From: Candidatus Woesearchaeota archaeon
GTDB lineage: Archaea; Nanobdellota; Nanobdellia; Pacearchaeales; GW2011-AR1
DNA: 64,000 nucleotides
Assembly: GCA_964594115.1 (NCBI GenBank)
Contig: CAZQLD010000002.1
Span: 10,450 to 74,449 of the forward strand
Direction: 5' to 3'
Shown one piece after another: positions 9,101 through 37,084 of the stretch. The position numbers and the translations under genes were made by a program. The notes beneath the pieces are model-generated. The model ran no database searches. It saw only the letters and a list, made by a program, of their open reading frames with translations, and had not been told where the DNA came from. Positions within the stretch are counted from its first letter, which is position 1, and each line of letters begins with the position of its first letter.

Positions 9101-9318
9101 TGATTAATGCGATTTCTGATACTTCTTCAGCTTTTGTGCAAGAAGACATTGTTTTAGGAGATTCAAAGATTGGAGGGTTGGCTATTTTAAGTGAATCAAC
9201 TAGGGATATTGTTTTTAGTGTCTTTTTTATTGCTGTATTTGTAGTATTAGCTTTCTTTATAATAAGAAGGATTTTTAAGTTGAGAAAACTGAAGAAAAAG
9301 GGAAGTATAGGATTGTAG
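6175..9318 (+). CDS. large N-glycosylated cell-surface protein (1,047 aa), paralog of the ectodomain of the giant ORF
   Basis: N-terminal TM with many N-x-S/T sequons. Two 'SCWY..N..NITINNC.NTTFDV..DG.Y.LN..VNDS' Ig-like repeats. A DNRLRE-like beta domain (aa ~300-400). A 'PSPPSGGGGGGGGS' linker, then a beta domain and a C-terminal TM anchor. Confidence 0.6.
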   Translation: MEKRVAIRYLIFGIMVIGLFLTLIILRLKVDFIGITGYAVYTTQDIGYVERGVYWNKIDKGGGNYNLEIYNAVINYNNGTEYEPISYGVCGSNCFRNWDGLIYKTSSDSQRAYIELYDVDGNIITKFGFGITGSILGANQKYSTLNFTWTWTQELDMSTNEYTFKAWNNRADFNWTQEFHFYPDQPMKIKNILVNNLGEDILNAKFWYIQTVGAEEGIWFNGTKYTEDAFKTGDFDSLMPYVKFEDDYIFDYTDLLANGFNITDFYLGDGEIIGVSGIRMLAIGVTRGSSTFSDGLIVTVDPTVKIGGSGNGEDVYVDKSTPNRNHGDKDYLKVQKLTWQRAYLKFNISEIPSGQVIDNASLCLFMYDDQGSNILLANHVYDDSWCEGDGGTDGSPACEVTWNNQPCGTENEYLNASNCNTTAETNLSNDGSLDDTWQCWNVTNMIKTEYASSNELVSIILWTIDSGNADFFHTKEYFNNSVWPYLNITYHTANTAPSMSLVLPQDGANYGNNESIELNFSVSDAESNIDSCWYSINNGNNITINNCVNTTFDVPGDGSYILNIYVNDSYGLASESSSNFSVQVGAPTIVLHSPINVYLRYNNIEFDYTPTDIDLDSCELWGNFTGSFGLNQTDTNVISGIVNSFNLDLEEGTHLWNIRCNDSLGNSVFNGNKTFYVDTTNPDLSISEPFGSKSSRTGIPLTFSVSDTNLESCWYNVEWATGGIVIANTSIVNCTNIVFDVSSDGNYVLNLFVNDSAGSSNYTSSSFSVTTSIPSPPSGGGGGGGGSVVLSLGKLELSQISNLIVDPGESKKLVLGVKNIGKIFLNDCKAKGKGENEGWIISEGIKGLSAGEEYDFIFTLNIPKALGAGSYNLELEVVCQESNESVNFSAEIIEKKLSVDLITVEKGSKEGVKIIYSLTELSGFDQEVRVEIVLFGENNERLAEKSESRKILAGSNKEFETILNNPENLAGSVNLLINAISDTSSAFVQEDIVLGDSKIGGLAILSESTRDIVFSVFFIAVFVVLAFFIIRRIFKLRKLKKKGSIGL

Positions 9319-20969: not shown

Positions 20970-21578
20970 ATGGATAAAAGAGGCGCAAGCGAGATTGTAA
21001 CAATAGTTCTTCTAGTCTTTTTAGCATTGGTAGCGGTTCTTCTTATTTTGGATATTATTAATTCTGTAGTTGAGAAAGAAACTGAAAAAATTGAGCTGGA
21101 AGATTTTACAGAAAGTATGGATTCAGAAGCAGCTGGAGTATCTGCTGGAGATTTAGAAACTGCGCAAGCAGACTGTTTGTCTGATTGGGAGTGTGAAGAA
21201 TGGTCGAAATGTCAGGTTATTTATAATTTAGATGCAATTATTTCAGATGATATTTTTTTAGAAGGAGAGATGCAGAGAAAATGCAAGGACTTGAATAAAT
21301 GTAATTATAATAAAATTGAACAAAAAGAGTGTGAAACAAAAGCCAATGTTAGTGTTGAAAGAGTTAACAGATGTTCTAAAGAGTATATCGAGGTAAGGGA
21401 TAAAGATGAAGTTTTAATTTCAAGATTAGAGCTAACTAATGGAACTTCTCAGGAATTAAACATACAGTTATTTCTTGGAGATGTGAAGTATTGCTCTTAT
21501 TGTTATAATGATATAAAGGATTATGATGAAGATGAGGTTGATTGTGTTTATCAAGGAGATAGTTGTCCTATCTGTTAG
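20970..21578 (+). CDS. secreted acidic Cys-rich protein (N-terminal TM/signal)
   Basis: 'IVTIVLLVFLALVAVLLIL' anchor; 16 Cys including a C-terminal 'CSYCY...CVYQGDSCPIC'. Confidence 0.4.
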   Translation: MDKRGASEIVTIVLLVFLALVAVLLILDIINSVVEKETEKIELEDFTESMDSEAAGVSAGDLETAQADCLSDWECEEWSKCQVIYNLDAIISDDIFLEGEMQRKCKDLNKCNYNKIEQKECETKANVSVERVNRCSKEYIEVRDKDEVLISRLELTNGTSQELNIQLFLGDVKYCSYCYNDIKDYDEDEVDCVYQGDSCPIC

Positions 21579-21692: not shown

Positions 21693-24600
21693 ATGGTATA
21701 TAAAAAATACATAAAAAGAGGAAATAAGAGATTTGGGCCTTATTACTATGAAAGTTATAGGGATAAGGATGGAAAAGTTAGGACAAGATATATTGGAGAA
21801 ACAATATACTGTAAATCCTCTAAAAAGGGTTTAGATAAGGTAAAAACAAAGCATTTGATAGGCATTCTTTTATTATTGATTATCGGAATTCTTCTTGTTC
21901 GGGTTTTGCCTTTGTTGGAGGATAGTGAAAGGACTATTGGTATTAAAGGTGGTTTAAGAGATCTCGAAAAGACAGGTTTTTCAGAAGAAGCAAGGGCTCC
22001 TATTGTTGGCTTGGCAGTTTCTGGGGAAACTCCTGTAGAAATGTCTACAAAAAAGATTGAAGTTAAAACAAAAAGATATAGTGTAGTTATTAACAGGCCT
22101 GTTAAATGGGTTAAGACAGTTAAGGTTGATGATAAAACAGATATAGAAAATTTGACTCTGGAAATTCCTAAGGAAGCAGAGTTTATTAATATTAAAACAG
22201 CTGAAGAAGTTCAAGAGGTTTTAGAAAATATAACAGATTACAATAAAGAAATTAAGCAGCTTGATAAAAGGGATTTAAAACAGGGAGAGGTAAGTTTAGC
22301 TGCTTTGAAGACTAGGACATCATTAGTGCTTAAGATTGTGAATTGGGTGAAAGATTCTAGAGCTAAGATTGTAGGATATGTTTTAGAAGAATGGGAAATA
22401 GAGGAAGGAATCAAAAAAACAAAAGATGAAACTGTTATTGAATTAGGGAGGGTTGTTGAATTAGAAAAGCAGGTAGAGGATATTTTAGAAAAACAAGCAG
22501 AAGCAGAGATTGCTGTAGAGTACCTAACAGAAGGACCGCAGTCAGTTGAAGAAGAACTTCCTAATGGAAAGAGGATTAGGATAACAGCAGCAGATGAATT
22601 TGAGTATAAAGATATTTTAGCATATACTGAATTAGATAATTCTATTAGTATGCAAGATGTTGAAAAAGCTAAGTTATATTGGTATATAAGTGAAGAAGAT
22701 TTAAAATTGATTGAGGAGATACCAAAAACTCTAGAAGAAGTAAGTAATTTTGAGGAGACTGAAGAAATTGATGTTGAGTTTGTTAAAGAAAGAGAAGAAA
22801 TAATAGGAGAAACAAAAGAAATTGAAGAAGTTGTTACAATTTCTGAGGAAAACATAACAGAAGAAATTGTAGAACAACCAACTTCTTTAGAAAATACAAG
22901 TGAAGAAACCGAAATTCCAACTTTAGGTCCTTTAAATAAATTAGTTGAGTGGACTAAATGGATTTATGGTCCTGAGATAGTTGGTAGTGCAACTGCCCAA
23001 GAAACAGAATTAGAAAAGAAATTAATAAAAGTTCCTGTAGAATTTGAAGCTTATGATTTAGATGAAGATGGAAATGTGGATTATATAGAATGGATTGTTC
23101 CTTATTTGTCAGAGCAAGTTTATGAATTTGTTATTGAAATAGCAAAAGCAGAACATTTAGATGAAAATAAAAATTTTATAGCAGATATTTATTCTGTTGT
23201 TTCTGAAAAAGATAATGTCTGGGGAACTGTAGGTAATAATGAGTATTTGAGAATTATATTTGAGCAGCCACTAAAGAGTAAAGATGACATAACAGTTTAT
23301 ATGAAAGCTGGGCAACCTGCTGAAATAGAGGTTTATGAGGGAAATACTGAGGAATTGATAGCAGTTTTTGAGAGTATTCAAGAAGAAAATTTGTATAAGG
23401 TTTATTTGACAAATCTTAGAGAAGAAAGCTATTATATTTTTGATTTAAAAATTAAAGGAGAGGTTGAGTTTGATTCTGTTTATGGAACTGTATGGAAAGA
23501 GGTTTGTGATGAAAAAGAGATTTGTGTGTATGAAAGTGAGAAAGAAGGCATTAAAGCAGAAATTGGGAACAAAGACAGAGAAGATAAAGAATATGAGCCT
23601 CATCTTAAGCTGAGCAAATGGAATAATGAGGTTTTATTTAAAATAAAGCCTGATTCTGAGAACTCAATTTCAAAAATAACAGGTTCTGTCGTATCTGAGA
23701 AAATTAAAGAGATTAGATGGGACAAACCTAAGATAAAAGGAGAAGATAGTGTTGATATGAGTTCTGAGTTAAAAGAAGTTGAATGGCATTATGAAGAAAT
23801 AGGTGATTTTCCTGTTTTAAAAATGGATGAAATAATAAAACAAAAGCCAGATACAAATATATTCAGTTATAAAATTGAGTCAGAGAATCTTGATTATTAT
23901 TACCAGCTTCCTTTATATTTGGAATATGGATTAACTGAGCCAAATTCAACTTGCAATGCTACAAATTGCCAAGGTGCTTACCGCCCTGTTAATGTTGTTG
24001 GAAGTTATGCTGTTTATCATAAGACTAAGGCAAATAATGAGTATAAAACAGGAAAAGCGTTTCATATTTACAGGCCAAAGATTTATGAAAAAAATAATGA
24101 AAATAACTGGATTTGGGGAGATTTAAATATTGATGAGGAACAAGGAATTTTAACAATTACAATTGAGCAAAACTGGCTGGATAATGCTGATTATCCTATT
24201 GTGATTGACCCTGTTTTTGGTTATCAGACAGTTGGGGGAAGCATGGCAAAGCTTTCTACGTACCAAGGTGAAGAGTATGGTAATACACCTAGGGGTTCAC
24301 TATTTACTATGCCTGAGATTGGGTGGGTGGATTCAATCTCAGCTTATATCCACATGTATTCTAATGATTTGGGGCATGCAGGGGCAATATATAAACATTT
24401 TGACTCAAGTAAAGTTGGACAAACAGAAACGGTTTTGCTTCTGGGAGATAGTACTGTCTCTTGGAGAACTTTCAACTTTAATCCGCCAGCGTCTGTTTCT
24501 AATATTGATTATGTTCTTGTGGTTCATCAGTGGACTGGTGGCTATTATACTAATCTGTATTATGACTCTGGCACTACAAACCAAGGGCATTATCGTGACG

Positions 24601-27600
24601 CAGAACATGCGGAAAGTTTACCTAGTCCACTATCTTTTATTCATGACAATAAAAAATGCTCCATTTACGCTACTTATACTATCCCAGATATAATTCCTCC
24701 TATTATTAGTATAGTGTCTATTGGTGGTGATTCATCTTCTCCGTATTCTACTTCAGATAATACTCCTTTAGCAGTTATAACTACAAATGAAAATGCTGAT
24801 TGCAGGGCTTCTAGAGATGGTGATGAAAGTTATGATAGTATGAGTGATGATGTTGATTGTAGTGGAGATGGAGGGAAATCACACAATTGCCAGTTTGGGT
24901 TACTCAGTGATGGCTCCCCAACAGTGTATTTTGCTTGTAGGGACACTATCGGTAATAAAAATACAGCATCAAATAATAAGCAAACAGCAGTTCAAATAGA
25001 CACAAATCCACCAACCCAGTCAAATCATAATCCAGCAAAAGGTTCTACAATAAACACAAAATCTCCAACAATAACCTTTACTACAAATGAGCTTGGAGAT
25101 TGCAGAGCTTCACTATTAGATGAAAGTTATGATAGTATGTCAAATGATGTAGATTGCACATCAGGAACAAGCACATCACACTCTTGCTCTATGTCTGGGT
25201 TATCAGAGGGCTCTGAGGTTGTATATATAGCATGTAAAGATGATACATCTGTAAGTCCTAATAAAGATACTGTTGCAAGCAATGAACATGTTAATTATAT
25301 TGTTGATGCAGTTGCCCCTATTGTAACTATTAATTCAATAGGAGGAGATACTAGCCCTCCATTTAATATATCAGATATATCTCCAAGTGTATCTGCAACA
25401 ACTAATGAAAATGCTGATTGCAGGGCTTCAAATGATGGAGATGAAAGTTATGATAGTATGAGTGATGATGTTGATTGTAGTGGAGATGGAGGAACAAGCC
25501 ATACATGTAATTTTGGCATAATAGGAGCAGGAACCCATATAATTTCTGTGTCATGTAGGGATTCTGTTGGAAATAAAAATACTGCTGGAGATAATGATAA
25601 TGAACAAGTTGAAATTGATAATTCTGCACCAATTGTAACTATTAATTCAATAGGAGGAGATACTAGCCCTCCATTTAATATATCAGATATATCTCCAAGT
25701 GTATCTGCAACAACTAATGAAAATGCTGATTGCAGGGCTTCAAATGATGGAGATGAAAGTTATGATAGTATGAGTGATGATGTTGATTGTAGTGGAGATG
25801 GAGGAACAAGCCATACATGTAATTTTGGCATAATAGGAGCAGGAACCCATATAATTTCTGTGTCATGTAGGGATTCTGTTGGAAATAAAAATACTGCTGG
25901 AAATAATGATAATGAACAAGTTGAGATTGATAATTCTGTACCAACCCAGTTAAATCATAATCCAGCAAAAGGCTCTACAATAAGCACAAAATCTCCAACA
26001 ATAACCTTTAACACAAATGAAATTGGAGATTGCAGAGCTTCATTGTCAGATGAAAGTTATGACAACATGTCAAATGATGTGGATTGCACATCAGGAGCAA
26101 GCACATCACACTCCTGCTCTATGTCAGGATTATCAGAAGGTTCTGAGGTTGTGTATATCGCATGTGAAGATGATACTTCTGTAAGTCCTAATAAGGATAC
26201 TGCTGCAAGTAATGAACATGTTAATTATATTATTGATACATCTGCTCCTGCTGTGCAATTTGTTTTTCCAACTACACAATCTGGTAGTTATTCACAAAAT
26301 TATATAAAAGCAAATGTTACAGCAAATGATCCAAGTCTTGCTGATATTACAGTCTATCTTTACTTTCAATTTGGTCTTCTTCAATCAAGTTCAATAAATT
26401 CTCCATTGTTTGTTGAGTTTACTCCTTTAAGTGAAGGAACTTATTATTTAAATGCCACAGCAATTGATACACTAGGAAACAGGGGGTCTTCAGAAACAAG
26501 AACAATAATTCTTGATAGGTCTGACCCAACAATAACGCTTATTTCTCCTGTTAATGGGGATGTAAGAACAACCCCTTTATTTAATTTCGCGGCTGATTTT
26601 AATGATAGAGCTTTAAAAAATGCAACTCTTTATGTTTGGGATTCCTCTAGAAATATAGTAAATATTACAACAACAGCTCTTTCAGGAACTTCTGATTCTG
26701 CAAGCATTCCAGTGACTTTGCCTTATGAAGATACTTTTTACTGGAATTATTATGCTTGTGATGACTTAGGGAACTGCAGGTTTAGTAATGTTAACTGGAG
26801 TGTTACTTATGTAACTATTAAAATTGGTTTAGATGTTATTTGGCCTCCTGGAAATGTAGATGTAAGCCAGAACCAATTGTTTAATGTAACATTAAAAGTT
26901 TCTTGTAGTGGTGCTGATTGTGGTGATGTTGATGTTAGTTTAGACCCAGATGTTAAACTGCAAATTGAAAACTTAGAAGATGTGTTTTTTGGTTCATCAT
27001 TAGGGGACCAATATTCTGCAGTTAAATTTGATATAGGTTCTGTTCCGCAGAACATGGTTATTGAAAATGCTTTTTTAGCTCTTTATGTTTCTGAAACTGG
27101 TTCAGGTCTTGATTCAGATGTTAAATATTACAGGATAAACAATCAGGGCTGGACTGAAGGTAATACAGCAGGGGCTATGTGGAATTTAAGAAATTCAAGA
27201 GATACTGGAAAAACTGATAATTCTGCTTTTTCTTCAACTGGATGGACCTATTTAGATGTTACAGAAGCTGTAAGAAAAGAATATGAGTCTGGAAATAAAA
27301 ATGTTTCTTTTTGGTTAGAAGATCCAGATAATGCAGCAGATGTTCCAACTAATAGTTATGGTGGTGAAGATTATCTCCGGATTGGAAAAGGGGTTAGTAA
27401 TTTTTTTCATAGATTTTATTCAAAAGAGCATACTGGAGTATCAAATAGGCCATATCTTAATATAATTTATAGAAAAGGATTAATTCCGACAACCCCTTCT
27501 GTTCCTTTTTATACAATTTATAATAATCCAATAAGAATAAGTTTATTTGCTGGGGATACTAAGCTTGTTATATTTTGGGTAAATGCAACTGGTTCTGGAA

Positions 27601-30600
27601 CTTGGAATTTTTTTGCTTATGTAAATAAGACAAATGCTATGTCTATAAGCAATATAACTTCTTTTTGGAATGTTACAATTATAGATGTAACTAATCCAAC
27701 AATAAAACTTACTTCTCCTATAAATGGGGAGCAAATTCAAAGTTCTCCGGTAAATTTTAAAGCTAATTTTTATGATGCTGGTTTAAAAAATGCAACACTA
27801 TATATTTGGGATTCAAATGGGATTAATTATACTCAAACAATAGCCCTTTCAGGAACTTCTGATTCTGCAAGCATTCCGGTAATTTTAGGAGATGGAAATT
27901 ATAAATGGAATTATCAGGCTTGTGATGTAGGAGATAATTGCATTTCTAATAATATAAACTGGACATTTAGTTTAGATGCCACTCCTCCTGAGGTTAATTT
28001 ATTAAGCCCTCCAGACAATTTGACTATTACTTCCCAACAAACATTTAGTTTTGAAGCTAATTTTACTGATATTAATTTGAAAAATGCCACTCTTTTTATT
28101 TGGGATTCAACTAATAGCATTGTTCACAAACAAACAGATACTTTTTTGGGAAATTATGGCTATTCAAATATTTCAGTGACCTTACCTGATTCAGGCACTT
28201 TTTATTGGAATTATTATGCTTGTGATGGCTTAGGGAATTGCAGGTTTAGTAATGTTAACTGGAGTTTAATATTAGGAAGCGTTCCAATTACAAATACTCC
28301 TGTTTTAACAAATGTTAATCCCCAACTTGGACCTTCATCTGACTTAAATTGTTCATTTGTTATTACAGATTCTAATCCTTCTGACCCTCTTGCAGCTAAT
28401 GTAAGATGGTATAGAAATGGTGTTGAAGAGTCTGCTGTTAATGTTAATGTTCAGAATGGTGTTATGCACTCAGTTATTCTTGATTCAAACTATATTAATG
28501 CTTGGGAAAACTGGACGTGTAGTGTTATACCTTATGATGGCAGTGCATTTGGCATACTAAAAAATTCAAACCATGTGTTTATTAAAGCTCTTTTAGATAT
28601 TCAGTACTCTTCTAGCAAGCAGGATTTAGGAACAATAATAAATTATTCTATTTCTGCTAATCTAATTAATAAGCATACAGCACAACTTGAGACAGGGGAT
28701 ATATTAATTGAAGTTTCAAATTCTTCTGGAGTCCAGGCTGCTGGAATTTGTGTTAGCTCAAGTTCTTGTTTTAGGTCATGGTTTGTTCCAATTAGTTTAG
28801 GCTATGGTATTTATTTAGTGAATATTACTGGAAGCAATAAAACCCATTATTTAAGCAAGTCAGTTAGCTTTTCTGATAGTATTAGCTTATGGTCATGGAA
28901 TGTAAATCCTTCATCGCTTGATAAAATAAAAGCTATAGGTTCGCAAGGAATTTTAGAGATAATAGATGTAAATAATATGGGCAGTGAGATTATGGACTTT
29001 AATATATTAAGCAATAATCCTTCTATAATCTGGCCAGATGTTAGTTTTTTACAAGTTCCTCCTGATCAAAAAAACAGCTTTACGCTTAATTATAGTGCTC
29101 CTGCTAAAGGCACATATAGTATCAATGTAAGTGTTAGAAATCAAGAGGTTACTGCAGTTCCAAGGGAATTAAATGTTATTATAAATTTTACATCTGCTGA
29201 CTTAAAAGTCAATTTAATTTCCCCAACAAATCAAATACCTTTGACAAATGTTTCTATAGCACAAAAAGTAGAAATAATAACAAATGCAAGCTATGAAGGG
29301 GCGCCTATAATTAATGATTCTACTTGGATTATCAAAATTGGAGGGCGTGATTGTGGAGACATCACTTATTTTTATGATTTTATTAATGCTTACTGGAATA
29401 TTAGTTGTTCTGCTCCAGATGTGCCTGATGATAGGCCGCACCCTCTTGAAGCTGTGATGCTTAGTAATGAATATGGAGAAGTATCTTATAGTGAGGATGA
29501 TGTTGTGTATTATAGAGATACAAGCCCTCCTGTATTTGAAAATATATTCAGAAATAATATTAATATAAATGGACTGATAAATCTTATTGCAAATGTTTCT
29601 GATAATCTAGGAGTTAAATATGTTGTTGCTAATATAACTGATCCTAATTCAAGCAGTTTCGAATGCAATATGACTAATATTGGAGGATTATGGTTTTGTA
29701 ATTCTATAATCTTAAATCTAGCGGGAGAGTATATTGTTGATTATATCGCAAGCGATGTTTCTGGGAATACTGGTTATGCACAAGACTGGTTTGAGGTTTA
29801 TGACAGGTATTTTTGGGCTGTTAGTTTAGTTGATTATAATTCAACCCCTGTTAGTAATGTCAGTATAAGTTTATCCAGACCTTATACAGGGCCTGTTTTA
29901 GTGAGCAATATAACAAATGCTTTTGGAAAAGCAAATTTTTATGTCAATAAAAGAAAGTATGACATTCGTGGAGGAATTTCAGGCGACGAATTTATTGTAA
30001 GAGAGATTGACTTTGTAAACTCTTCTAACCCAATTTATTTGAATTTTTACAGATACAAAGGAGAGTTAGGGGAAGTTATACCATTACATAGGTTTGATGA
30101 AATTTCTTCTTTTGGAATAGTATCTAATTCAACTAATATGGATAGTAATTTGGTGACTTTGATATTTAATTATAGCTCACTTATTAATAATGTTAATTCA
30201 CTTACAAATCTAGAGATTATGCAGTGTTCAGTCTGGGATTACGCAGCTAGAAGTTGTTTGGGTGTTTGGCAAGCCTTAAGTTCTTCAAGGGATATTGATG
30301 TAAAGACAATTACTGGAAATTCAACTGGGTTTAGTGCATATTTTCTTACTGAAAATACCTGTGGAACTGGTGGCTGTGAGCCAGCTTTTGGAGAAGCAGT
30401 TGGCAATTGCGGTGACTGTATAGCTGGCGGAGGAGGTCCAAGCGGAGGCGGCGGTGGAGGCGGAGGCGGAGGTAGTATCAGCCGCTCTCAAGTAACTCAG
30501 ATTACAGAAAGTTTAATAAAAGTTGGAGGAGTCAGGATTGACACTTCTTCAATTTATGAAGAACTATTTCCAGGAGAAACAACAACAATTAATATAAAGC

Positions 30601-32708
30601 TGACTAACACTCTGAATAACTTCACAACTCTTGATTTAAGTACAGAAGGAAACATAATGCAGTTTATCTCATATGAAAGTGATAAGATTGATATAAAAGG
30701 AAAAGAGAGTAGAGATGTTCTAATAACAATTAGCATTCCTGAACTAACAGACCAAGGGACTTATGAGGGAAGTTTGGTTTTGAGTTCTGGAAATAAAACT
30801 GGAAAAATACCTACAACAATCAAGGTTCTTTCACTTGAGGGAAAATTATTAGATGTGAAAATACAGCCTTTGAATACACGGGTTTCACCTGGTTCAATAT
30901 TAAAATTACAGAGAGATTTGGTTAATGTTGGAAAAACAATCAGGGTTAGTGGGTTATTTGATTTGCAACTTTTAGAGGTGAATACAGGAGAGATTATGGC
31001 AAGAAACGAAGAAAGATTTATGGTAGAAACAAGTGTGAGTGATATTAAGGAATTAGAGATTCCTAAGAAAATAAAAGAAGGAGAGTATATGGTTAAGGCT
31101 GTTGCTCATTATTCTACTATGGATAAAGATATGCAGGCAACTTCTATTGCCCATATTAGTGTAGCTTATCCTTTTTTAAGCAGGAGATTTTTGTGGCTTC
31201 CTTTGTGGTTTTACTTATTGTTGATTTTAATGATTGTCTTTTTGATTGGAACATATTCTTATGCTAAATGGCGTGAATTTAGAAAAAAGAGATTTAAGGT
31301 TAAGGTAGCCCTCAACAAGCTTCCCCAAGCAGGACCAAATTCAGGATTTATTGGAAAGATTGCAGAAATAGGGGCTAGAGCGTTTGTTAATTTGAATAAT
31401 TTACAAATGCATACATTAATTGCAGGAGGTACTGGCTCTGGTAAAACTATTGCTGCCCAAGGAATTGCAGAAGAAGCTCTGCTCCATAAAAAGAGTGTTA
31501 TTGTTTTTGATCCTACTGCCCAGTGGACTGGGCTTTTAAGAGCTTGTAAAGACAAAGGAATGTTAAGAAGGTATAGTTATTTCAATATGAAGACAAAAAA
31601 AGCAAGAGGATTCAATGGAACAATCAAAACAATACATGACCCTTATGAATTAATAGATATAGGGAAATATATGAATAAACCCGGAGAAATAACAGTATTT
31701 AATCTAATTCATTTAGCTCCAAAAGAAATTGATATTGTTATTTCAAGTACAATTGAGCAAATTTTTAAGTTAGAACCAGAAGAAAGCAAAAGTTTGAAGA
31801 ATCTAATTATATATGATGAAGTTCACAGACTTCTTCCTAAATTCGGAGGAAGTGGAGAAGGTTTCCTACAGCTGGAAAGAGGGGCAAGAGAATTTAGAAA
31901 ATGGGGGGTTGGTTTAGTTTTAATAAGCCAGGTATTAAGTGATTTTATTGGAGAGATTAAAGCTAATATTGGAACAGAGATTCAGTTGAGGACAAGATAT
32001 GAAGGAGATTTAGAAAGAGTTAATATGAAATATGGAGATGATATATTAAAATCTGTTGTTAAAGCGCCTATTGGAACTGGAATGGTTGTTAATGCAGAAT
32101 ATAATAATGGAAGCCCTTATTTTATTGCGTTTAGGCCTGTATTGCATAGCACTAAGAGATTGACAAAACCAGAATTGGAAAAATATGAAAAGCATTTTGA
32201 AGAAGCAGAAGACATAGAATATCAAATTAATCAATTGAGGACACTTGGGGCTGATGTGTTGGATTTAGAATTAGAACTAAAACTTGCAAGAGGAAAGATA
32301 AAGACAGGGCAGTTTCCAATGGCTGATATGTACCTTCAGATATTAAGACCTAAATTAGAAGAAAGTTGGATGAGTGTTGGAAAAAAGCCAAGACATTTGG
32401 TTAAGAAAAAGATAAGCAGAGAGGAAATTGTAGGAGGAATTGCTAAAGCGAAGGAAGAAAGGGTAAAATATATAAAGGAAAATCCCGAAGAAATAATAGA
32501 TATAGGACGAGAAATTTCAAAATTAAAGAAGAAATTAGCAGAAAAAAAGAGGAAAGGCGGAGATAAGAGACTTATTTCAAACATTGATTCCTGGATACAT
32601 GCTCTAAAAGAGAGAATAAAGCCATTTAAAGGAAAGATAAACACAGAAGACTCTGAAGTAATTATGAAGGCATTGGAGTCTGTAGGAAAAGAAATAGATA
32701 AATTGTAA
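21693..32708 (+). CDS. giant (3,671 aa) membrane protein: N-glycosylated Ig-like-repeat ectodomain fused via TM helix to a C-terminal cytoplasmic FtsK/HerA/VirB4-class P-loop ATPase
   Basis: The ORF is uninterrupted for 11 kb in an AT-rich background. TM1 is 'HLIGILLLLIIGILLV' (aa ~55-75). Ectodomain repeats include CRAS...DVDC repeats (x5) and NATL[YF][IV]WDS repeats (x3). A poly-Gly linker spans ~30426-30473. TM2 is 'WLPLWFYLLLILMIVFLIGTY' (~31188-31255). Walker A 'MHTLIAGGTGSGKT' (~31419-31451). Walker B 'LIIYDEVHRLLP' (~31802-31837). 'LISQVLSDFIGEIKANIGTEIQLRTR' follows. Confidence 0.7.
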   Translation: MVYKKYIKRGNKRFGPYYYESYRDKDGKVRTRYIGETIYCKSSKKGLDKVKTKHLIGILLLLIIGILLVRVLPLLEDSERTIGIKGGLRDLEKTGFSEEARAPIVGLAVSGETPVEMSTKKIEVKTKRYSVVINRPVKWVKTVKVDDKTDIENLTLEIPKEAEFINIKTAEEVQEVLENITDYNKEIKQLDKRDLKQGEVSLAALKTRTSLVLKIVNWVKDSRAKIVGYVLEEWEIEEGIKKTKDETVIELGRVVELEKQVEDILEKQAEAEIAVEYLTEGPQSVEEELPNGKRIRITAADEFEYKDILAYTELDNSISMQDVEKAKLYWYISEEDLKLIEEIPKTLEEVSNFEETEEIDVEFVKEREEIIGETKEIEEVVTISEENITEEIVEQPTSLENTSEETEIPTLGPLNKLVEWTKWIYGPEIVGSATAQETELEKKLIKVPVEFEAYDLDEDGNVDYIEWIVPYLSEQVYEFVIEIAKAEHLDENKNFIADIYSVVSEKDNVWGTVGNNEYLRIIFEQPLKSKDDITVYMKAGQPAEIEVYEGNTEELIAVFESIQEENLYKVYLTNLREESYYIFDLKIKGEVEFDSVYGTVWKEVCDEKEICVYESEKEGIKAEIGNKDREDKEYEPHLKLSKWNNEVLFKIKPDSENSISKITGSVVSEKIKEIRWDKPKIKGEDSVDMSSELKEVEWHYEEIGDFPVLKMDEIIKQKPDTNIFSYKIESENLDYYYQLPLYLEYGLTEPNSTCNATNCQGAYRPVNVVGSYAVYHKTKANNEYKTGKAFHIYRPKIYEKNNENNWIWGDLNIDEEQGILTITIEQNWLDNADYPIVIDPVFGYQTVGGSMAKLSTYQGEEYGNTPRGSLFTMPEIGWVDSISAYIHMYSNDLGHAGAIYKHFDSSKVGQTETVLLLGDSTVSWRTFNFNPPASVSNIDYVLVVHQWTGGYYTNLYYDSGTTNQGHYRDAEHAESLPSPLSFIHDNKKCSIYATYTIPDIIPPIISIVSIGGDSSSPYSTSDNTPLAVITTNENADCRASRDGDESYDSMSDDVDCSGDGGKSHNCQFGLLSDGSPTVYFACRDTIGNKNTASNNKQTAVQIDTNPPTQSNHNPAKGSTINTKSPTITFTTNELGDCRASLLDESYDSMSNDVDCTSGTSTSHSCSMSGLSEGSEVVYIACKDDTSVSPNKDTVASNEHVNYIVDAVAPIVTINSIGGDTSPPFNISDISPSVSATTNENADCRASNDGDESYDSMSDDVDCSGDGGTSHTCNFGIIGAGTHIISVSCRDSVGNKNTAGDNDNEQVEIDNSAPIVTINSIGGDTSPPFNISDISPSVSATTNENADCRASNDGDESYDSMSDDVDCSGDGGTSHTCNFGIIGAGTHIISVSCRDSVGNKNTAGNNDNEQVEIDNSVPTQLNHNPAKGSTISTKSPTITFNTNEIGDCRASLSDESYDNMSNDVDCTSGASTSHSCSMSGLSEGSEVVYIACEDDTSVSPNKDTAASNEHVNYIIDTSAPAVQFVFPTTQSGSYSQNYIKANVTANDPSLADITVYLYFQFGLLQSSSINSPLFVEFTPLSEGTYYLNATAIDTLGNRGSSETRTIILDRSDPTITLISPVNGDVRTTPLFNFAADFNDRALKNATLYVWDSSRNIVNITTTALSGTSDSASIPVTLPYEDTFYWNYYACDDLGNCRFSNVNWSVTYVTIKIGLDVIWPPGNVDVSQNQLFNVTLKVSCSGADCGDVDVSLDPDVKLQIENLEDVFFGSSLGDQYSAVKFDIGSVPQNMVIENAFLALYVSETGSGLDSDVKYYRINNQGWTEGNTAGAMWNLRNSRDTGKTDNSAFSSTGWTYLDVTEAVRKEYESGNKNVSFWLEDPDNAADVPTNSYGGEDYLRIGKGVSNFFHRFYSKEHTGVSNRPYLNIIYRKGLIPTTPSVPFYTIYNNPIRISLFAGDTKLVIFWVNATGSGTWNFFAYVNKTNAMSISNITSFWNVTIIDVTNPTIKLTSPINGEQIQSSPVNFKANFYDAGLKNATLYIWDSNGINYTQTIALSGTSDSASIPVILGDGNYKWNYQACDVGDNCISNNINWTFSLDATPPEVNLLSPPDNLTITSQQTFSFEANFTDINLKNATLFIWDSTNSIVHKQTDTFLGNYGYSNISVTLPDSGTFYWNYYACDGLGNCRFSNVNWSLILGSVPITNTPVLTNVNPQLGPSSDLNCSFVITDSNPSDPLAANVRWYRNGVEESAVNVNVQNGVMHSVILDSNYINAWENWTCSVIPYDGSAFGILKNSNHVFIKALLDIQYSSSKQDLGTIINYSISANLINKHTAQLETGDILIEVSNSSGVQAAGICVSSSSCFRSWFVPISLGYGIYLVNITGSNKTHYLSKSVSFSDSISLWSWNVNPSSLDKIKAIGSQGILEIIDVNNMGSEIMDFNILSNNPSIIWPDVSFLQVPPDQKNSFTLNYSAPAKGTYSINVSVRNQEVTAVPRELNVIINFTSADLKVNLISPTNQIPLTNVSIAQKVEIITNASYEGAPIINDSTWIIKIGGRDCGDITYFYDFINAYWNISCSAPDVPDDRPHPLEAVMLSNEYGEVSYSEDDVVYYRDTSPPVFENIFRNNININGLINLIANVSDNLGVKYVVANITDPNSSSFECNMTNIGGLWFCNSIILNLAGEYIVDYIASDVSGNTGYAQDWFEVYDRYFWAVSLVDYNSTPVSNVSISLSRPYTGPVLVSNITNAFGKANFYVNKRKYDIRGGISGDEFIVREIDFVNSSNPIYLNFYRYKGELGEVIPLHRFDEISSFGIVSNSTNMDSNLVTLIFNYSSLINNVNSLTNLEIMQCSVWDYAARSCLGVWQALSSSRDIDVKTITGNSTGFSAYFLTENTCGTGGCEPAFGEAVGNCGDCIAGGGGPSGGGGGGGGGGSISRSQVTQITESLIKVGGVRIDTSSIYEELFPGETTTINIKLTNTLNNFTTLDLSTEGNIMQFISYESDKIDIKGKESRDVLITISIPELTDQGTYEGSLVLSSGNKTGKIPTTIKVLSLEGKLLDVKIQPLNTRVSPGSILKLQRDLVNVGKTIRVSGLFDLQLLEVNTGEIMARNEERFMVETSVSDIKELEIPKKIKEGEYMVKAVAHYSTMDKDMQATSIAHISVAYPFLSRRFLWLPLWFYLLLILMIVFLIGTYSYAKWREFRKKRFKVKVALNKLPQAGPNSGFIGKIAEIGARAFVNLNNLQMHTLIAGGTGSGKTIAAQGIAEEALLHKKSVIVFDPTAQWTGLLRACKDKGMLRRYSYFNMKTKKARGFNGTIKTIHDPYELIDIGKYMNKPGEITVFNLIHLAPKEIDIVISSTIEQIFKLEPEESKSLKNLIIYDEVHRLLPKFGGSGEGFLQLERGAREFRKWGVGLVLISQVLSDFIGEIKANIGTEIQLRTRYEGDLERVNMKYGDDILKSVVKAPIGTGMVVNAEYNNGSPYFIAFRPVLHSTKRLTKPELEKYEKHFEEAEDIEYQINQLRTLGADVLDLELELKLARGKIKTGQFPMADMYLQILRPKLEESWMSVGKKPRHLVKKKISREEIVGGIAKAKEERVKYIKENPEEIIDIGREISKLKKKLAEKKRKGGDKRLISNIDSWIHALKERIKPFKGKINTEDSEVIMKALESVGKEIDKL
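25319..25942 (+). repeat. two tandem ~312-bp copies (~99% identical) inside the giant ORF
   Basis: 25319-25630 and 25631-25942 differ at only a few bases near their 3' ends. Antisense ORFs 25402..25632 and 25714..25968 give identical peptides, which confirms the duplication. Confidence 0.85.
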
Positions 32709-32740
32709 ATTTTCACGATATTTGAGTAAAAGAGGTTAAA

Positions 32741-34018
32741 ATGTTTTTTAAGAAAAAAGAAAAAGGAGTTCCTGATGTAGGTCAGGAAGATACTTATGAT
32801 AGGGAGATGAACAGAAATGGTGTTGAGCTCAGAGACGAATCGGGAGAACCTTCTATGATGCCAGAATCCTCAAACCCTAATTTTTCTTCAACTCCCAATA
32901 TCCCGAGCATTGCTTCTCCTAATGCTCCCCCTCCTTCTCCAAGTATGCCTGCTCCTGAGCCTCCGAATCTTCCTCCTTCAAATATGCCAGCCCCTACTTT
33001 AAATATGTCTGCTTCTAATATGATTGCATTGGAGTTTGAAAAAATTAATGCAAAGATTGAGGCAATGGTTGTATGGATAAAGCAATTTTATGAAAGATTC
33101 TATCATGCTTGTGAAAATATAGGAGAGGTTAGAAATATGGCACTTACAAATGAGAAAAGTATTGCTAAAGCAGTTAGAGACTCAACTAGGGCTATTGACC
33201 TTGTTAAAGAAGTGAAGCCAGAAAAATTAAGAATTGATAACAGGAGATTAGATATGAAAATAAATGCTCTTTCTGAGAAAATAGAATTAAGCAAACAATT
33301 TTCAGAGAGTATTATGAAAGAACTTAAGGTTTTGAAAAGAAGAGCAGATGTTTTTATTGGGACAGAGGAGTTGTTGAAGTTAAATGATGAGGTTAAGAAA
33401 GATTTGATTGAAATCCAAAAATTTGGTTCAAGGGTAAGATTAGATTCAGATAAATCAGAACAGATTTTTATTGAATTGAAAAAATCCTTATCAGAGGTTC
33501 AGAGAATAGATGCCAAATTCACTAATTTCAGTAATATTTCTTCTGAGTTGAGGGAGGAAGTAGAAAAATTAAAAATTAAAGCACGTCATTTAGATGATAT
33601 TAGAAAATCCAGTGATTTAACAGAAGATTTAATTGAAAAAACACTTTTGCTTGCGAAAAAGAACAAGCAAGCCATAGGAGGATTTACAGTTACAGATTAT
33701 GAAAAGAGGTTAAATGCTATTTTGAAAGTGGTGGATAATCTCGTCGGACAGATTTCTGATATTAAAAGAAAACTAGCAGGGTCAGAAGATGTTGATCTGG
33801 CTCCAAAAACAGTTAATGTTAAAAAGATAATTAAGGACCTGCCTTCAATTAAAAAAACAAGAAACCCAAAACCTGAAAAACTAAAATCTAGAAACCCTAA
33901 AAAATCCAAGAGATATGTTAAGTCTGAAGAGCCTCCTGAACTTCCTGTGCCTCCTATACCTTCACCTCCTCCTGAAGAAAATAAAGAAAGAAAGAAAAGA
34001 AACAGGAAAAAACAATGA
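32741..34018 (+). CDS. Pro-rich N-terminus + long coiled-coil protein with basic C-terminal tail
   Basis: 'PNAPPPSPSMPAPEPPNLPPSNMPAP', then ~250 aa of heptad-like K/E-rich helix. C-terminus 'PPELPVPPIPSPPPEENKERKKRNRKKQ'. Confidence 0.45.
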   Translation: MFFKKKEKGVPDVGQEDTYDREMNRNGVELRDESGEPSMMPESSNPNFSSTPNIPSIASPNAPPPSPSMPAPEPPNLPPSNMPAPTLNMSASNMIALEFEKINAKIEAMVVWIKQFYERFYHACENIGEVRNMALTNEKSIAKAVRDSTRAIDLVKEVKPEKLRIDNRRLDMKINALSEKIELSKQFSESIMKELKVLKRRADVFIGTEELLKLNDEVKKDLIEIQKFGSRVRLDSDKSEQIFIELKKSLSEVQRIDAKFTNFSNISSELREEVEKLKIKARHLDDIRKSSDLTEDLIEKTLLLAKKNKQAIGGFTVTDYEKRLNAILKVVDNLVGQISDIKRKLAGSEDVDLAPKTVNVKKIIKDLPSIKKTRNPKPEKLKSRNPKKSKRYVKSEEPPELPVPPIPSPPPEENKERKKRNRKKQ

Positions 34019-34716
34019 GTGAAAAACCCCCTTTAAAGAAAGAATCTAAAAAAGAGAAAGTTAAGGGGAAAAAGAAAGCAATTGGAAAGCGCCCTTTATC
34101 TAGGAGATTTACAAGGGCTACAGGAGGTCCTGCGGTTTTGACTCCTTCTCAGTTTGAAATAGAACCCCTGTTTATCCCGCAACTTACTCCAGATTATCCT
34201 GAAGAAAAGTTAAGAGGGATTATTAAGAAAACTGAGGTTAAGCCAAAAACCAGTATTAAGGATTTAGCTAGAAAGCTTGATGCTCTTAAGCATGCGTATT
34301 TGTCTAAAAAACAAAAACCAGTTGTTATGGAAAACCCTCCCATTAAGAAGCCCCCTGTTAAAAAACCAGAATTTCCAAGCAATAAGATAATTTTGATTAA
34401 AAAACCTTTAGTTAAAAAACCAATACTAATCTTCACGAAAAAATCAGTTACAAAGAAACCTGATAAAAAACTAGAGTCCTTAACTAAAAAGGCAATCTTA
34501 ATCAAGAAAACCCCTGAATCCAAAGGATTCCCAAAACCCCTAATTAAAAAATTAAAGCCAGTTGTTGTCAAAAAACCCATGAAAAAAGAACCTGCTAAAT
34601 CTACAGGAGAGTTCCTTAAATTACCTAAGATGCCATCTTTAACCTTTTCACTGAAAAAATCCTCGAAACAAGAAAAAACAAAGAAAAAGTCTATAGCCAA
34701 AGAAGATAATAAATGA
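34015..34716 (+). CDS. Lys/Pro-rich repetitive basic protein
   Basis: Repeats of 'KKP(x)VKKP', 'IKKPLVKKPILI', 'LIKKLKPVVVKKPMKK'. 4-nt overlap with the upstream ORF. Confidence 0.4.
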   Translation: MSEKPPLKKESKKEKVKGKKKAIGKRPLSRRFTRATGGPAVLTPSQFEIEPLFIPQLTPDYPEEKLRGIIKKTEVKPKTSIKDLARKLDALKHAYLSKKQKPVVMENPPIKKPPVKKPEFPSNKIILIKKPLVKKPILIFTKKSVTKKPDKKLESLTKKAILIKKTPESKGFPKPLIKKLKPVVVKKPMKKEPAKSTGEFLKLPKMPSLTFSLKKSSKQEKTKKKSIAKEDNK

Positions 34717-34719
34717 AAT

Positions 34720-34914
34720 TCAACCGAGCTTTTTTTCTATATCTTTAATTCTTTGCTCAAAATTTTGTTTTCTAAGTTCCTGTGTTTCTGGATCTTGTTC
34801 TTTTTTTAGAAAATTCATTAGTTTCAATTTTCTGTAAATAAGAAGTAAGAGTATAATTAGGACTACTACTATTGCAACTAATGCTCCTAAGATTATCATG
34901 ACCCAGTATTCCAT
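34720..34914 (-). CDS. small single-pass membrane protein
   Basis: N-terminal TM 'VMIILGALVAIVVVLIILLLLIY'. Confidence 0.3.
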   Translation of the reverse strand: MEYWVMIILGALVAIVVVLIILLLLIYRKLKLMNFLKKEQDPETQELRKQNFEQRIKDIEKKLG

Positions 34915-34968
34915 TTTAGACTCCTCTTTTTGTTTTTAATTAGAAGGATTTATAGTTTTTAAGTTTAT

Positions 34969-35727
34969 CTAAGGTTTATTTTCTATTAATGAATAGGGCG
35001 TTGTCCTATAGAGTATAAATCTGCTTCCAACAAACTCAGAAATAACTGCACTGATTCTTAAATCTCCAGTAATTGCCTTAAAAACCCCTCCTGTTATAGG
35101 AATCCTTGCGCTTTTTGAGAAGTTCTCAATTATTTTTTTAATGTCATCTTCTGATAATTTTATTTTTGTGAAATTTACTCTGTTTGCTTTTTTAACAAGT
35201 ATGAGTTTCTCAGGTCCAAGACACTCTATAATTGTAATTGCTTTGTCTTTTAAAAGTATATTCAACTTTCCTAAATCTGGTTCTGCTCTGGTTTCTGTAA
35301 CTGGAGGAGCTGACATTTCTGATGGAGGGGCGGAAATAGGTCTGGTAAATCTTCTTGTAAGGCGAGTTGGTCGAATTGTTAGGTTTGATGGCCTTTGTAT
35401 TTTTGGCAGGGGCTTAATTGGATGTATTGGCTGGATTCGTTGTATTGGCCGGGGAAAAATTTGTGTGGGCTGCGCCACTTCTGGAACAATACGCGGCAAG
35501 AAATTTTCAGCAGGTTTTTCTATTCTTTTTTTAGATTCTTGCTCCTTTAATTTAGTCATTTCTTGTAATATTTGGGAGTGGGGCAGTATAGGAGGAAGCA
35601 CATGGATTTCTTTAGCTGGCTGTTCAGCAGGTTTTTCTATTGCAGGCTTTTTAGAGTTAATAATAAGCTCTTGAGTAAAAAGTTTCAAAAAAAGAATTTT
35701 ATCTTTATTAGTCATTTGTTTTAACAT
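34969..35727 (-). CDS. Pro-rich linker protein with folded C-terminal domain
   Basis: Central 'PxxPxQ' repeats ('PRIVPEVAQPTQIFPRPIQRIQPIHPIKPLPKIQRP'). The C-terminal ~110 aa are globular. Preferred over the antisense ORF 35141..35674. Confidence 0.4.
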   Translation of the reverse strand: MLKQMTNKDKILFLKLFTQELIINSKKPAIEKPAEQPAKEIHVLPPILPHSQILQEMTKLKEQESKKRIEKPAENFLPRIVPEVAQPTQIFPRPIQRIQPIHPIKPLPKIQRPSNLTIRPTRLTRRFTRPISAPPSEMSAPPVTETRAEPDLGKLNILLKDKAITIIECLGPEKLILVKKANRVNFTKIKLSEDDIKKIIENFSKSARIPITGGVFKAITGDLRISAVISEFVGSRFILYRTTPYSLIENKP

Positions 35728-35764
35728 TTTAAAAACAAAAAATAATTTACTGAGATAACTTTAA

Positions 35765-36145
35765 TTATAAGTGGGGATATCTCGGCCTTCCTGGATTTAA
35801 ATTACGTACAGGGGGTCTTTCTCTTAACCTTTCTTCTATTAAAGTTAGGCCTCTGGCTATTGTTTTGTTTTGTTCAAGCAGAATATCTAGTTTCTCTAAG
35901 AGTTCTTGATTTTTCTCTTCTGTTTTCGTAATTGATTTTTTTTCTATGTCTGGGATTTGTTTTTCTACAAAACTTTTTGCAGATATTTCAAAAAGCTGGA
36001 GTAATTTAGACATTTTTTCAGAAAGTGAGTCAAATTTAATAGATAAATTTGTAAGAACTTTTTGCAAATTGACAAAATTTTCTATAAGCATTTTGTCAAG
36101 TTCTGGTTTTGCTGGATTTTTTATTTTTGCCACTTTATTTTTCAC
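35765..36145 (-). CDS. coiled-coil protein
   Basis: 126 aa, heptad-rich. Confidence 0.35.
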   Translation of the reverse strand: MKNKVAKIKNPAKPELDKMLIENFVNLQKVLTNLSIKFDSLSEKMSKLLQLFEISAKSFVEKQIPDIEKKSITKTEEKNQELLEKLDILLEQNKTIARGLTLIEERLRERPPVRNLNPGRPRYPHL

Positions 36146-36223: not shown

Positions 36224-37084
36224 TTAATTTTCTCCTCTCTTTAATCTTTCTAACTCCTCTTTATCCCTTCTTAATTTTTCTTCAGCTTCTTTTATCTTGT
36301 TTTTTTTATTTTTAATGTTAGCTATTTCTTCTTGAAGCGCCCTTGCTCTTTTTTCTAATTCTAAGAGTTTTTTTTCTTCTTCAGTTAAATCTTTTTCACT
36401 TACTGCTCTTTCTTTTATTTCATCTTTGATTTCACTATATTTGCGAATCTTGATATTTTTAGATGATGGTTTTCTTATTAGTAAGGGTTTTTTTAGTATT
36501 GTCTTTCTAAAAATAAGAAACAGTATTGCTGCAACAATGAGAATCCCTATAGTAATAAAATAAACAATATTTGGAAGAAATCCATCACCTTCAGGAGCAC
36601 TTGAGCCAACTGTTGCATTTAAATTTTCTGTTCCTTCTGATGAGGATGTTGTAGTAGTTGTATTTGTTGTAGTAGTTGTATTTGTTGTAGTAGTTGTATT
36701 TGTTGTAGTTGTAGTAGTTGTATTTGTTGTAGTTGTAGTAGTTGTATTTGTTGTTCCCATGTGTTCTTCTTTGAGTAACCTAAGGCTAATTGTACCTCCT
36801 GTGGTATATCCTTCAAATTTCTTAAATACAACCAGTTTTCCATTTTTTCTTACTATTATGGAAAAATCTATCTTGCTTAGGTCGCAATTGAATTCAAATA
36901 TTGCTTTTCCTTTTGAGCCTGAATCTTTATTTAAAATTTGAATAGGATCTTCTACAGCTGGATTGAATATATTAGCAGTTACATTGTGATAGGCATAAGT
37001 TTCTACTTCTATTTGAGTAGTTACAGCTGAGACACTAGCTATTGCAAATAAGACTATAAGAATACAAATTATTTTTTTCACCAT
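36224..37084 (-). CDS. membrane protein with mucin-like Thr/Asn repeat stalk and cytoplasmic coiled-coil tail
   Basis: Signal peptide and beta ectodomain. 'TNTTTTTTTNTTTTTTTNTTTTTNTTTTTNTTTTT' is encoded by a 21-nt periodic repeat. TM is 'IVYFITIGILIVAAILFLIF'. K/E-rich coiled coil follows. Confidence 0.5.
   Translation of the reverse strand: MVKKIICILIVLFAIASVSAVTTQIEVETYAYHNVTANIFNPAVEDPIQILNKDSGSKGKAIFEFNCDLSKIDFSIIVRKNGKLVVFKKFEGYTTGGTISLRLLKEEHMGTTNTTTTTTTNTTTTTTTNTTTTTNTTTTTNTTTTTSSSEGTENLNATVGSSAPEGDGFLPNIVYFITIGILIVAAILFLIFRKTILKKPLLIRKPSSKNIKIRKYSEIKDEIKERAVSEKDLTEEEKKLLELEKRARALQEEIANIKNKKNKIKEAEEKLRRDKEELERLKRGEN
36648..36754 (-). repeat. 21-nt periodic coding microsatellite (gttgtagtagttgtatttgtt)n encoding a Thr/Asn stalk
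   Basis: Five direct units read from sequence. Confidence 0.8.

Follow-up and report, generated by a model that had tools for sequence, protein, structure and literature searches.

A giant gene fuses an adhesin-type ectodomain to an ATPase

The DNA analysed here, referred to as the window, is a 64-kb stretch of ~31% GC from a Pace-/Woesearchaeota-like lineage. On its forward strand lies one very long gene, called the giant from here on, whose product joins a giant ectodomain through a transmembrane (TM) helix to a HerA-like ATPase and very probably belongs to the published SPEARE family. Relatives of the giant were compared in 84 loci, five of them nanohaloarchaeal, and the open reading frame (ORF) was traced in each. 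The features of the giant and of the gene that follows it are given below, with lengths and positions in amino acids (aa) or nucleotides (nt).

21693..32708 (+): whole gene, fusion of giant ectodomain, TM helix and HerA-like ATPase, very probably SPEARE-type (single uninterrupted ORF, 3,671 aa)
21693..21854 (+): basic N-tail, predicted to be cytoplasmic, with the motif KRGNKRFGPYYYESYRDKDGKVRTRYIG, aa 1-54 (31% Lys+Arg)
21855..21917 (+): TM1, aa 55-75, probable uncleaved signal anchor (Kyte-Doolittle peak 2.86)
21918..24680 (+): distal acidic ectodomain, aa 76-996, lineage-specific (16% Glu)
24681..26255 (+): five tandem Cys-containing "CRAS" modules of ~100-104 aa, aa 997-1521 (piecewise self-BLAST)
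26430..26822 (+): NATLYVWDS module 1, immunoglobulin (Ig)-like, aa ~1580-1710 (self-BLAST to aa 1976-2199)
27000..27464 (+): DNRLRE/CBM96 carbohydrate-binding-type domain, aa 1770-1924 (NF033679, E 1.2e-12; PF24517, E 1.9e-12)
27591..28292 (+): NATLYIWDS and NATLFIWDS modules 2-3, aa ~1970-2070 and ~2065-2200 (self-BLAST)
28590..30419 (+): ectodomain stretch common to other giants, aa ~2300-2909 (tblastn, ~14-40 of the 84 loci)
30423..30476 (+): Gly-rich linker AGGGGPSGGGGGGGGGGS, Gly10, aa 2911-2928 (read from the sequence)
30477..31187 (+): membrane-proximal beta-sandwich modules, extracellular part of the conserved core (common to 67-73 of the 84 loci)
31188..31262 (+): TM2, aa 3166-3190 (Kyte-Doolittle peak 2.68), followed by KWREFRKKRFKVKV
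31305..32162 (+): cytoplasmic RecA-fold P-loop ATPase, HerA clade of the FtsK-HerA superfamily
31422-31448 (+): Walker A, AGGTGSGKT, aa 3244-3252
31803-31826 (+): Walker B, LIIYDEVH, aa 3371-3378
31920-31931 (+): sensor, LISQ
32163..32705 (+): C-terminal all-helical/coiled-coil tail (AlphaFold2 helices, model residues 313-491)
32741..34018 (+): partner, a 425-aa cytoplasmic coiled-coil protein with a Pro-rich N-part (conserved downstream gene)

A random frame at the local base composition was calculated to stop every ~12 codons. The giant runs for 3,671 codons without a stop and, therefore, is real coding sequence, as had been claimed in an earlier note on this DNA. The identical protein is on record on an NCBI contig (75 kb), and a 3,670-aa copy, 99.9% identical, lies on a second contig (JGI, 98 kb). 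Contigs assembled independently from SRR9709000 and SRR9706179 are 100% identical to window positions 29741-36676 and 30957-35736, respectively. Both cross the ectodomain/TM2/ATPase junction with no break through TM2, the point at which the earlier note had raised the question of a chimeric assembly. The junction is kept in every homologue examined, and continuous ORFs of 2,500-6,253 aa occur in many independent metagenome-assembled genomes (MAGs). A contig from Hainich groundwater (L002) holds a ~2,900-aa ORF that shares the N-tail motif and the C-terminal core with the giant and also has a TM and a variable ectodomain. Because of the recorded copies, the independent assemblies, the L002 ORF and the junction shared by the homologues, the fusion of adhesin and ATPase is confirmed as real.

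The alternative is an artefact, in which an adhesin gene and a separate ATPase gene would have been joined by chimeric assembly, or by overlooking a stop or frameshift. One relative, L001, is indeed broken into four frames, and in some family members the gene immediately upstream encodes a separate surface protein of ~1,027 aa. However, two assemblies that agree at every position over the junction effectively refute an artefact, and the second-contig copy, the homologues and the continuous ORFs in many MAGs speak against it as well. Its probability is negligible.

Topology and the N-terminal tail

A Kyte-Doolittle scan of the whole protein found exactly two hydrophobic segments, TM1 and TM2. 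Seven Lys/Arg residues fall within 15 residues after TM2, and 47 of the 49 Cys and 54 of the 56 N-x-S/T sequons are located between the two segments. Since there are two TM segments with positive-inside charge, and since Cys and sequons are confined to the middle, the sequence fits a single polypeptide with N-in/C-in topology. The long middle (aa 76-3165, ~3,090 aa) would be outside the cell and the C-terminal part (aa 3191-3671) in the cytoplasm. The earlier note had read the same order from the translation (basic N-tail, TM1, ~3,100-aa ectodomain, TM2, cytoplasmic ATPase), and hydropathy, charge and the Cys/sequon distribution agree with it. A TM is found at the position equivalent to TM2 in nearly all relatives.

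Several relatives begin with a classical signal peptide; the giant instead has a long basic tail and a TM1 that looks uncleaved. The tail shows weak, sub-threshold similarity to DUF6788 (E 0.089). Its motif, K(R/K)G.K..GPYYYESYRDK.GKV..RYIG, was found at window 21693-21854, L002 1309-1413, L012 20449-20553 and L028 16882-16983, where it opens the L002 giant as well as different membrane/surface proteins of related genomes (the L012 and L028 ORFs). The tail may be a portable cytoplasmic module set ahead of a signal-anchor.

A variable ectodomain on a fixed core

Repeats in the ectodomain were found by piecewise self-BLAST; self-BLAST of the whole protein gave the diagonal only. The CRAS modules, with CRAS at aa 1037, 1137, 1243, 1347 and 1447, fall into two alternating subtypes with 41-95% identity and E down to 1e-71. 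Weak Y_Y_Y and Big_3_3 matches were seen in NATLYVWDS module 1, and the DNRLRE/CBM96 domain was detected with an NCBIfam model (NF033679) and a Pfam model (PF24517). A Gly/Pro linker equivalent to the Gly-rich linker of the giant is carried by the relative P0007. Thus the ~104-aa Cys repeats, the three NATLY-type modules, the DNRLRE domain and the Gly linker that the earlier note had picked out were all found. Its dozens of sequons are also present, but over the whole ectodomain the 54 observed are only a modest excess over the 42.7 +/- 5.9 expected from composition. The clear enrichment is in aa 1500-2900, with 43 observed compared to 25.9 expected, a count reached in 0 of 1000 shuffles.

At E<=0.1, no Pfam family was matched by the distal aa 76-996, and no Laminin_G, protease-like or Tc-toxin-like region was found in the giant. 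The ectodomain encoded at L001 carries Laminin_G_3, Toxin_R_bind_N and F5_F8_type_C, which the giant of the window is without. The membrane-proximal beta-sandwich modules gave weak NPCBM_assoc and Ig-like Pfam matches and are homologous to the entire ectodomain of ~730-860-aa family members.

Conservation is uneven along the giant. The region aa 3000-3600 is common to essentially all 84 loci, and aa ~2300-3000 to up to ~40 loci, all of them giants. Almost none of the loci match aa 76-2300. Identity between the L002 giant and that of the window is 54% from aa 2629 onward. This unevenness suggests a fixed core, consisting of two membrane-proximal beta-sandwich modules, one TM helix, the HerA-clade ATPase and the helical tail, which bears a hypervariable, lineage-specific distal ectodomain. 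Because of the DNRLRE/CBM96 domain, the Ig-like repeats and the hypervariable distal part, the ectodomain is classed by its sequence as adhesin-type, with a distal part that is hypervariable, repeat-rich and carbohydrate-binding-type and a membrane-proximal part that is conserved.

A second surface protein of 1,047 aa, with CBM96/DNRLRE and Ig-like modules, is encoded at 6175..9318 (+). It is 25% identical to aa 1748-2181 of the giant, suggesting that ectodomain modules are shared among paralogous surface proteins of the same genome.

The ATPase is closest to HerA

An alignment of 51 homologues showed that Walker A, DPTAQW, Walker B/DEVHR, ER..REFRKWG and SQVL.DF are invariant or near-invariant. 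Pfam DUF87, the HerA central domain (PF01935), was matched with 32 bits against a cut-off of 23.2. A ResIII match was borderline (22.6 bits, cut-off 22.5) and covered the P-loop core only. Further profiles of related motors scored below their cut-offs: FtsK_SpoIIIE (PF01580; 12.9 bits, cut-off 24), TrwB_AAD_bind (17.7, cut-off 20.5), HerA_C, SXT_TraD (25, cut-off 366), the TraC equivalog (19.5, cut-off 567) and the NCBIfam CedD model (NF053655; 22.7, cut-off 600, P-loop only). The CagE_TrbE_VirB N-domain (PF03135) was not matched in the ATPase region. An AlphaFold monomer model of aa 3180-3671, built on the 51-sequence alignment, had a mean predicted local distance difference test score of 92 and matched the fold of solved FtsK-HerA members.

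On the strength of the DUF87 match, the conserved motifs and the model, the ATPase is placed within the HerA/VirB4 branch of the FtsK-HerA superfamily, where sequence and model put it closest to HerA and nearer to HerA than to VirB4/TraG. Judged by its residues, the P-loop is catalytically intact, and it is joined to TM2 via ~25 residues. Since the TM helix ends so shortly before the core, the HAS barrel is absent. In 80 of the 84 loci, conservation of the helical tail extends to about aa 3600. The FtsK-HerA-class P-loop, recognised in the earlier note from Walker A, Walker B and LISQ, is therefore borne out by profile, motif conservation and a HerA-like modelled fold.

HerA of Sulfolobus (4d2i), the motor of HerA-NurA, has a HAS barrel where the giant has a TM helix, and identity is only 19%. 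VirB4/TrbE/TraC differ in PF03135, which is absent here, and in the TraC score. The type IV coupling proteins TrwB/VirD4/TraD and FtsK/SpoIIIE share with the giant a membrane anchor directly before an FtsK-HerA-superfamily NTPase that faces the membrane; in those motors the anchor is N-terminal and the NTPase forms hexamers. They differ from it in that the TrwB_AAD_bind, SXT_TraD and PF01580 scores are below the family cut-offs, and an FtsK motor with a gamma domain was not found. CedB/CedD of the crenarchaeal Ced DNA-import system are, like the ATPase of the giant, HerA-like archaeal ATPases and are tied to DNA transfer between cells; the CedD match, however, is below the equivalog cut-off.

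The giant is a SPEARE-type protein

Hamm et al. 2019 (PMC6642349) described very long nanohaloarchaeal proteins, which were named "SPEARE". Most of the chain is extracytoplasmic; it has a TM helix close to the C-terminus and an intracellular region that is conserved, and the ectodomains carry at least one laminin-G domain together with other adhesion domains. One family member was shown to be expressed. Similar sequences were reported in Woesearchaeota, Aenigmarchaeota, Micrarchaeota and Altiarchaeales. In the supplementary information of that study, NAR1_1133 of Ca. Nanohaloarchaeum antarcticus (5,998 aa) has a TM at 5611-5633 and then a P-loop at 5652-5896/ResIII, and AOV94740.1 of Ca. Nanopetramus SG9 (8,553 aa) has a P-loop and PF01935 (DUF87). 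The family was re-analysed with SVXNc_0300 (9,409 aa) and BNXNv_0298 by Reva et al. 2023 (PMC10266531), with a layout of signal peptide, giant Ig-like ectodomain, TM, VirB4/TraG-like ATPase and coiled coil. A mud-volcano study has added an example of 12,127 aa in which TM helices are located at either end.

Two of our loci connect the giant to these proteins. The ORF of L036 is RLG14629.1, cited as a SPEARE match (Hamm et al. 2019), and its ATPase is 59% identical to that of the giant. The ORF of L066 is KYK27349.1, which stands in the 16-sequence tree of SPEARE intracellular domains in the same study, with 55.5% identity over the ATPase. The order of TM and then P-loop/DUF87 with weak ResIII is that of NAR1_1133 and AOV94740.1, and the layout as a whole agrees with the description of Reva et al. 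2023. The giant thus has the homologous intracellular P-loop, the very long ectodomain, the TM near the C-terminus and the cytoplasmic C-terminal region of a SPEARE protein. No Laminin_G was found in it at E<=0.1; instead there are DNRLRE/CBM96 and weak Ig-like matches, in what is the variable part of the family. We consider it very probable from these sequence comparisons that the giant is a Pace-/Woesearchaeota-type member of the SPEARE-type family of giant DPANN adhesin-ATPases.

Shared with SPEARE, SVXNc_0300 and BNXNv_0298 are the giant variable adhesion-type ectodomain, the C-terminal-proximal TM, the cytoplasmic P-loop/DUF87 and the coiled-coil tail, and the same coiled-coil gene lies downstream in the nanohaloarchaeal loci too. 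The giant differs in its ectodomain of CRAS Cys modules, NATLY modules and DNRLRE/CBM96, in its long basic N-tail with an uncleaved-looking TM1 rather than a Sec signal peptide, and in the lack of a second VirB4-like ATPase near the gene. Since RLG14629.1 and KYK27349.1 tie the giant to a published family, its architecture is not novel. The earlier note was mistaken that no described system joins such a motor to a giant surface protein, as the SPEARE layout was published in 2019 and again in 2023. Its "contact-dependent conduit" is, on our analysis, the same idea as the hypotheses already published.

Hamm et al. 2019 read the intracellular region as type III restriction-enzyme-like and proposed that it degrades imported host DNA. 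The borderline ResIII match of the giant is the same signal that was reported there. However, ResIII is a helicase/ATPase module and not a nuclease, it covers only the P-loop core, and it is outscored by DUF87/HerA on a domain whose fold is HerA-like. No protease, nuclease/endonuclease or DNA-binding domain was detected in the giant by the Pfam and NCBIfam profile scans. Reva et al. 2023 came to the same rejection and argued that protease/nuclease domains are absent from the type SPEARE proteins. A restriction-enzyme-like module is therefore a very improbable account of the cytoplasmic domain.

The family is widespread among DPANN archaea

A pattern scan of the GTDB species-representative genomes confirmed at least 573 matching stretches. 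Nearly all of the matches listed are labelled Pace-, Woese-, Nano-, Aenigmat-, Nanohalo- or Altiarchaeota; for the few MAGs labelled otherwise, we suspect a cause in binning or naming. When 1.84 billion cluster representatives were searched exhaustively with HMMER, 365 clusters (50% identity) were obtained at E<=1e-30. In the best 150 of these 365 clusters the ATPase is always C-terminal, and 50 of the 150 reach at least 2,000 aa, up to 6,253 aa. Homologues with the same fusion, for which the earlier note had proposed to look, were thus found.

Products of at least 2,000 aa are encoded by 31 of the 84 loci. Nine are complete giants (2,332-3,553 aa), and 22 further proteins exceed 2,000 aa before the sequence ends, so that their lengths are lower bounds. 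Among the shorter members, a class with many representatives measures ~1,250-1,320 aa and has a TM near aa 10 and one near aa 600, and a class of ~720-860 aa consists of a signal peptide, two beta-sandwich modules, a TM, the ATPase and a coiled coil. In the ~1,250-1,320-aa class, a separate gene for a ~1,027-aa PKD/Big_13 surface protein abuts the ATPase gene upstream (L066 4996-8076 and 31 other loci). A short, 734-aa member on a ~886-kb Nanoarchaeota-like contig is overlapped by 4 nt by the gene directly upstream (L004 5872-8004), whose product has beta-sandwich modules like those of the family's membrane-proximal ectodomain.

The orthologous giant gene at L001 1-11638 (JGI 3300076002), whose ATPase is 66% identical to that of the window, is split over four frames of 3,037 (running over the edge of the locus), 187, 332 and 545 aa. 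Either a pseudogene or sequencing frameshifts would account for this.

A conserved coiled-coil partner and the gene neighbourhood

The partner gene starts 33 nt after the stop of the giant, and GAGGT precedes its ATG by 6 nt. In 60-61 of the 84 loci, the nanohaloarchaeal ones included, it follows the family gene on the same strand. The partner family has a variable, Pro- or acid-rich N-part, a conserved helical core (ERFS..SE.IGE.R) and no TM, and the AlphaFold2 model of the partner has long helices at 91-158, 160-312 and 317-345. Pfam, PDB (profile) and Foldseek searches gave no family match beyond generic coiled-coil noise. An ESCRT-III/PspA-like identity was considered for its N-terminal "MxxFKKK" motif, and nothing was found in support.

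The 64-kb window contains no second HerA/VirB4-like ATPase and no VirB3/6/8/VirD4-like, NurA or CedA-like gene. Within +/-10 kb in the 84 loci, no second ATPase, type IV secretion system (T4SS), NurA or CedA-like gene is a conserved neighbour. The giant is thereby set apart from HerA-NurA, from VirB4/TrbE/TraC with their linked T4SS genes, and from CedB/CedD, which have a CedA-like membrane protein.

These results bear on the proposal of Reva et al. 2023 (PMC10266531) that SPEARE is a T4SS-like "straw" by which effectors are injected into the host, with the giant as the energising subunit. The giant has no CagE_TrbE_VirB N-domain, and neither the window nor the flanks of the 84 loci hold the other T4SS genes. 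Because the T4SS parts are missing and HerA ranked first among the motors, this proposal is weakened and we regard it as improbable. HerA-based antiviral defence, as in HerA-Sir2/Nezha, HerA-DUF4297 and DptH, is a further alternative, and PADLOC did return HerA matches. Those matches are put down to common descent within HerA alone. None of the effector genes (Sir2, nuclease, DUF4297) is linked to the family in the 84 loci, and no known HerA defence system resembles it in membrane topology and giant ectodomain. There is very little chance that the giant has such a role.

Other recurrent neighbours in the 84 loci are further surface proteins and a DUF5752-like gene. The latter encodes ~243 aa with the motif NDFANWIR and, in the ~1,250-1,320-aa class, follows the partner (L082 13831-14562 and 28 other loci); the same motif also occurs inside the C-terminal tails of some family members. 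Directly upstream of the giant, 20970..21578 (+) encodes a 202-aa Cys-rich protein that begins with MDKRGASEIVTIVLLVF, which resembles a class III, type IV pilin-like signal. The sole homologue of this protein in the 84 loci, L012 20449..21255, bears the N-tail motif of the giant instead. Downstream lie a Lys/Pro-rich 233-aa ORF that overlaps the stop of the partner gene (ATGA; 34015..34716, +), a Pro-rich 252-aa protein (34969..35727, -) and a TM protein with a long Thr/Asn tract and a coiled coil (36224..37084, -). These three are of low complexity, with no Pfam match and no homologues in the related loci. The 202-aa upstream gene and the 233-aa downstream gene were excluded as parts of the system, as neither is conserved alongside the family. 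At window 1549-1721 and 11375-11478, Rfam found two tRNA genes (173 and 104 nt), which probably contain introns and were unreported by ARAGORN; this pair indicates that the window is archaeal.

Proposed mechanism

As a whole, we favour with moderate confidence a SPEARE-type adhesin-ATPase that takes part in translocation. The mechanism by itself, a host-contact adhesin coupled to a polymer-threading hexameric motor, is put forward tentatively, at somewhat below an even chance. The ATPase would form a hexameric ring on the inner face of the membrane, as in all characterised FtsK-HerA members, and six ectodomains would radiate from one motor as a result. The ectodomains would hold the symbiont to host surface glycans or proteins, and, at the contact site, ATP hydrolysis would thread a polymer, either DNA or unfolded protein and in either direction, through the ring, with the coiled-coil partner serving as an adaptor or scaffold. 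EssC/EccC of the type VII secretion system, an FtsK-like ATPase anchored in the membrane, exports helical-hairpin proteins whose genes lie close by, and its parallel to the helical partner is an analogy only.

Several points weigh against this explanation. It is not obvious how six to twelve single TM helices would make a channel, and near the giant, in the window or the 84 loci, there is no conserved polytopic membrane protein of the CedA, VirB6 or FtsK-N type. No DNA-binding or nuclease domain was detected in the giant. A homologue search with a nanohaloarchaeal ATPase missed the named type SPEARE proteins and returned mostly ~780-aa Woese-/Pacearchaeota members; therefore, the link to SPEARE is carried by the two cited accessions and the domain order. 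Finally, in the proteomics of Hamm et al. 2019 (PMC6642349), the size fractions that yielded ectodomain peptides differed from those with TM plus cytoplasmic peptides, and the protein may therefore be parted into two halves once it has been made. The Gly-rich linker suggests itself as one possible cleavage site.

Such a separation would also suit a different role, in which the ATPase moves no substrate but works with its partner as a mechanical or remodelling module. Possible tasks would be to hold the adhesin in place or under tension, to handle or release the protein's own ectodomain, or to organise the membrane where the cells touch. In favour of this are the long coiled-coil nature of the only conserved partner, the lack of a conserved channel protein near the gene, and the helical tail that the ATPase itself bears. 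VirB4-type relatives, moreover, act on membrane proteins (pilins) rather than on DNA. On the other hand, we know of no precedent for such a role in the HerA clade, and the ring-pore logic of the superfamily favours polymer threading. A purely mechanical module is thus considered unlikely.

A wider form of the threading idea can be stated, although we are more doubtful of it than of threading itself. The core and the downstream coiled-coil gene may make up a self-contained, two-gene transenvelope machine, independent of T4SS and present throughout DPANN lineages, by which DNA or protein would pass from one cell to the other where symbiont and host touch. Lineages would graft onto it hypervariable host-binding ectodomains of 250 to >6,000 aa.

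Significance for DPANN symbionts

The window adds nothing categorically new, and a specialist would expect such a gene in such a genome. Three points about the family are sharpened by the analysis. The motor is placed by sequence and model as HerA-like rather than VirB4-like. There is one conserved coiled-coil partner, with no T4SS parts alongside. The ectodomain appears as a swappable, fast-evolving module on a fixed core.

DPANN symbionts are unable to make most nucleotides, lipids or amino acids, and a SPEARE-type gene takes up to several percent of their tiny genomes. The mechanism of the family is a matter of proposals. The family itself is biologically important, and it is among the most distinctive candidates for the uptake of host material by DPANN archaea.

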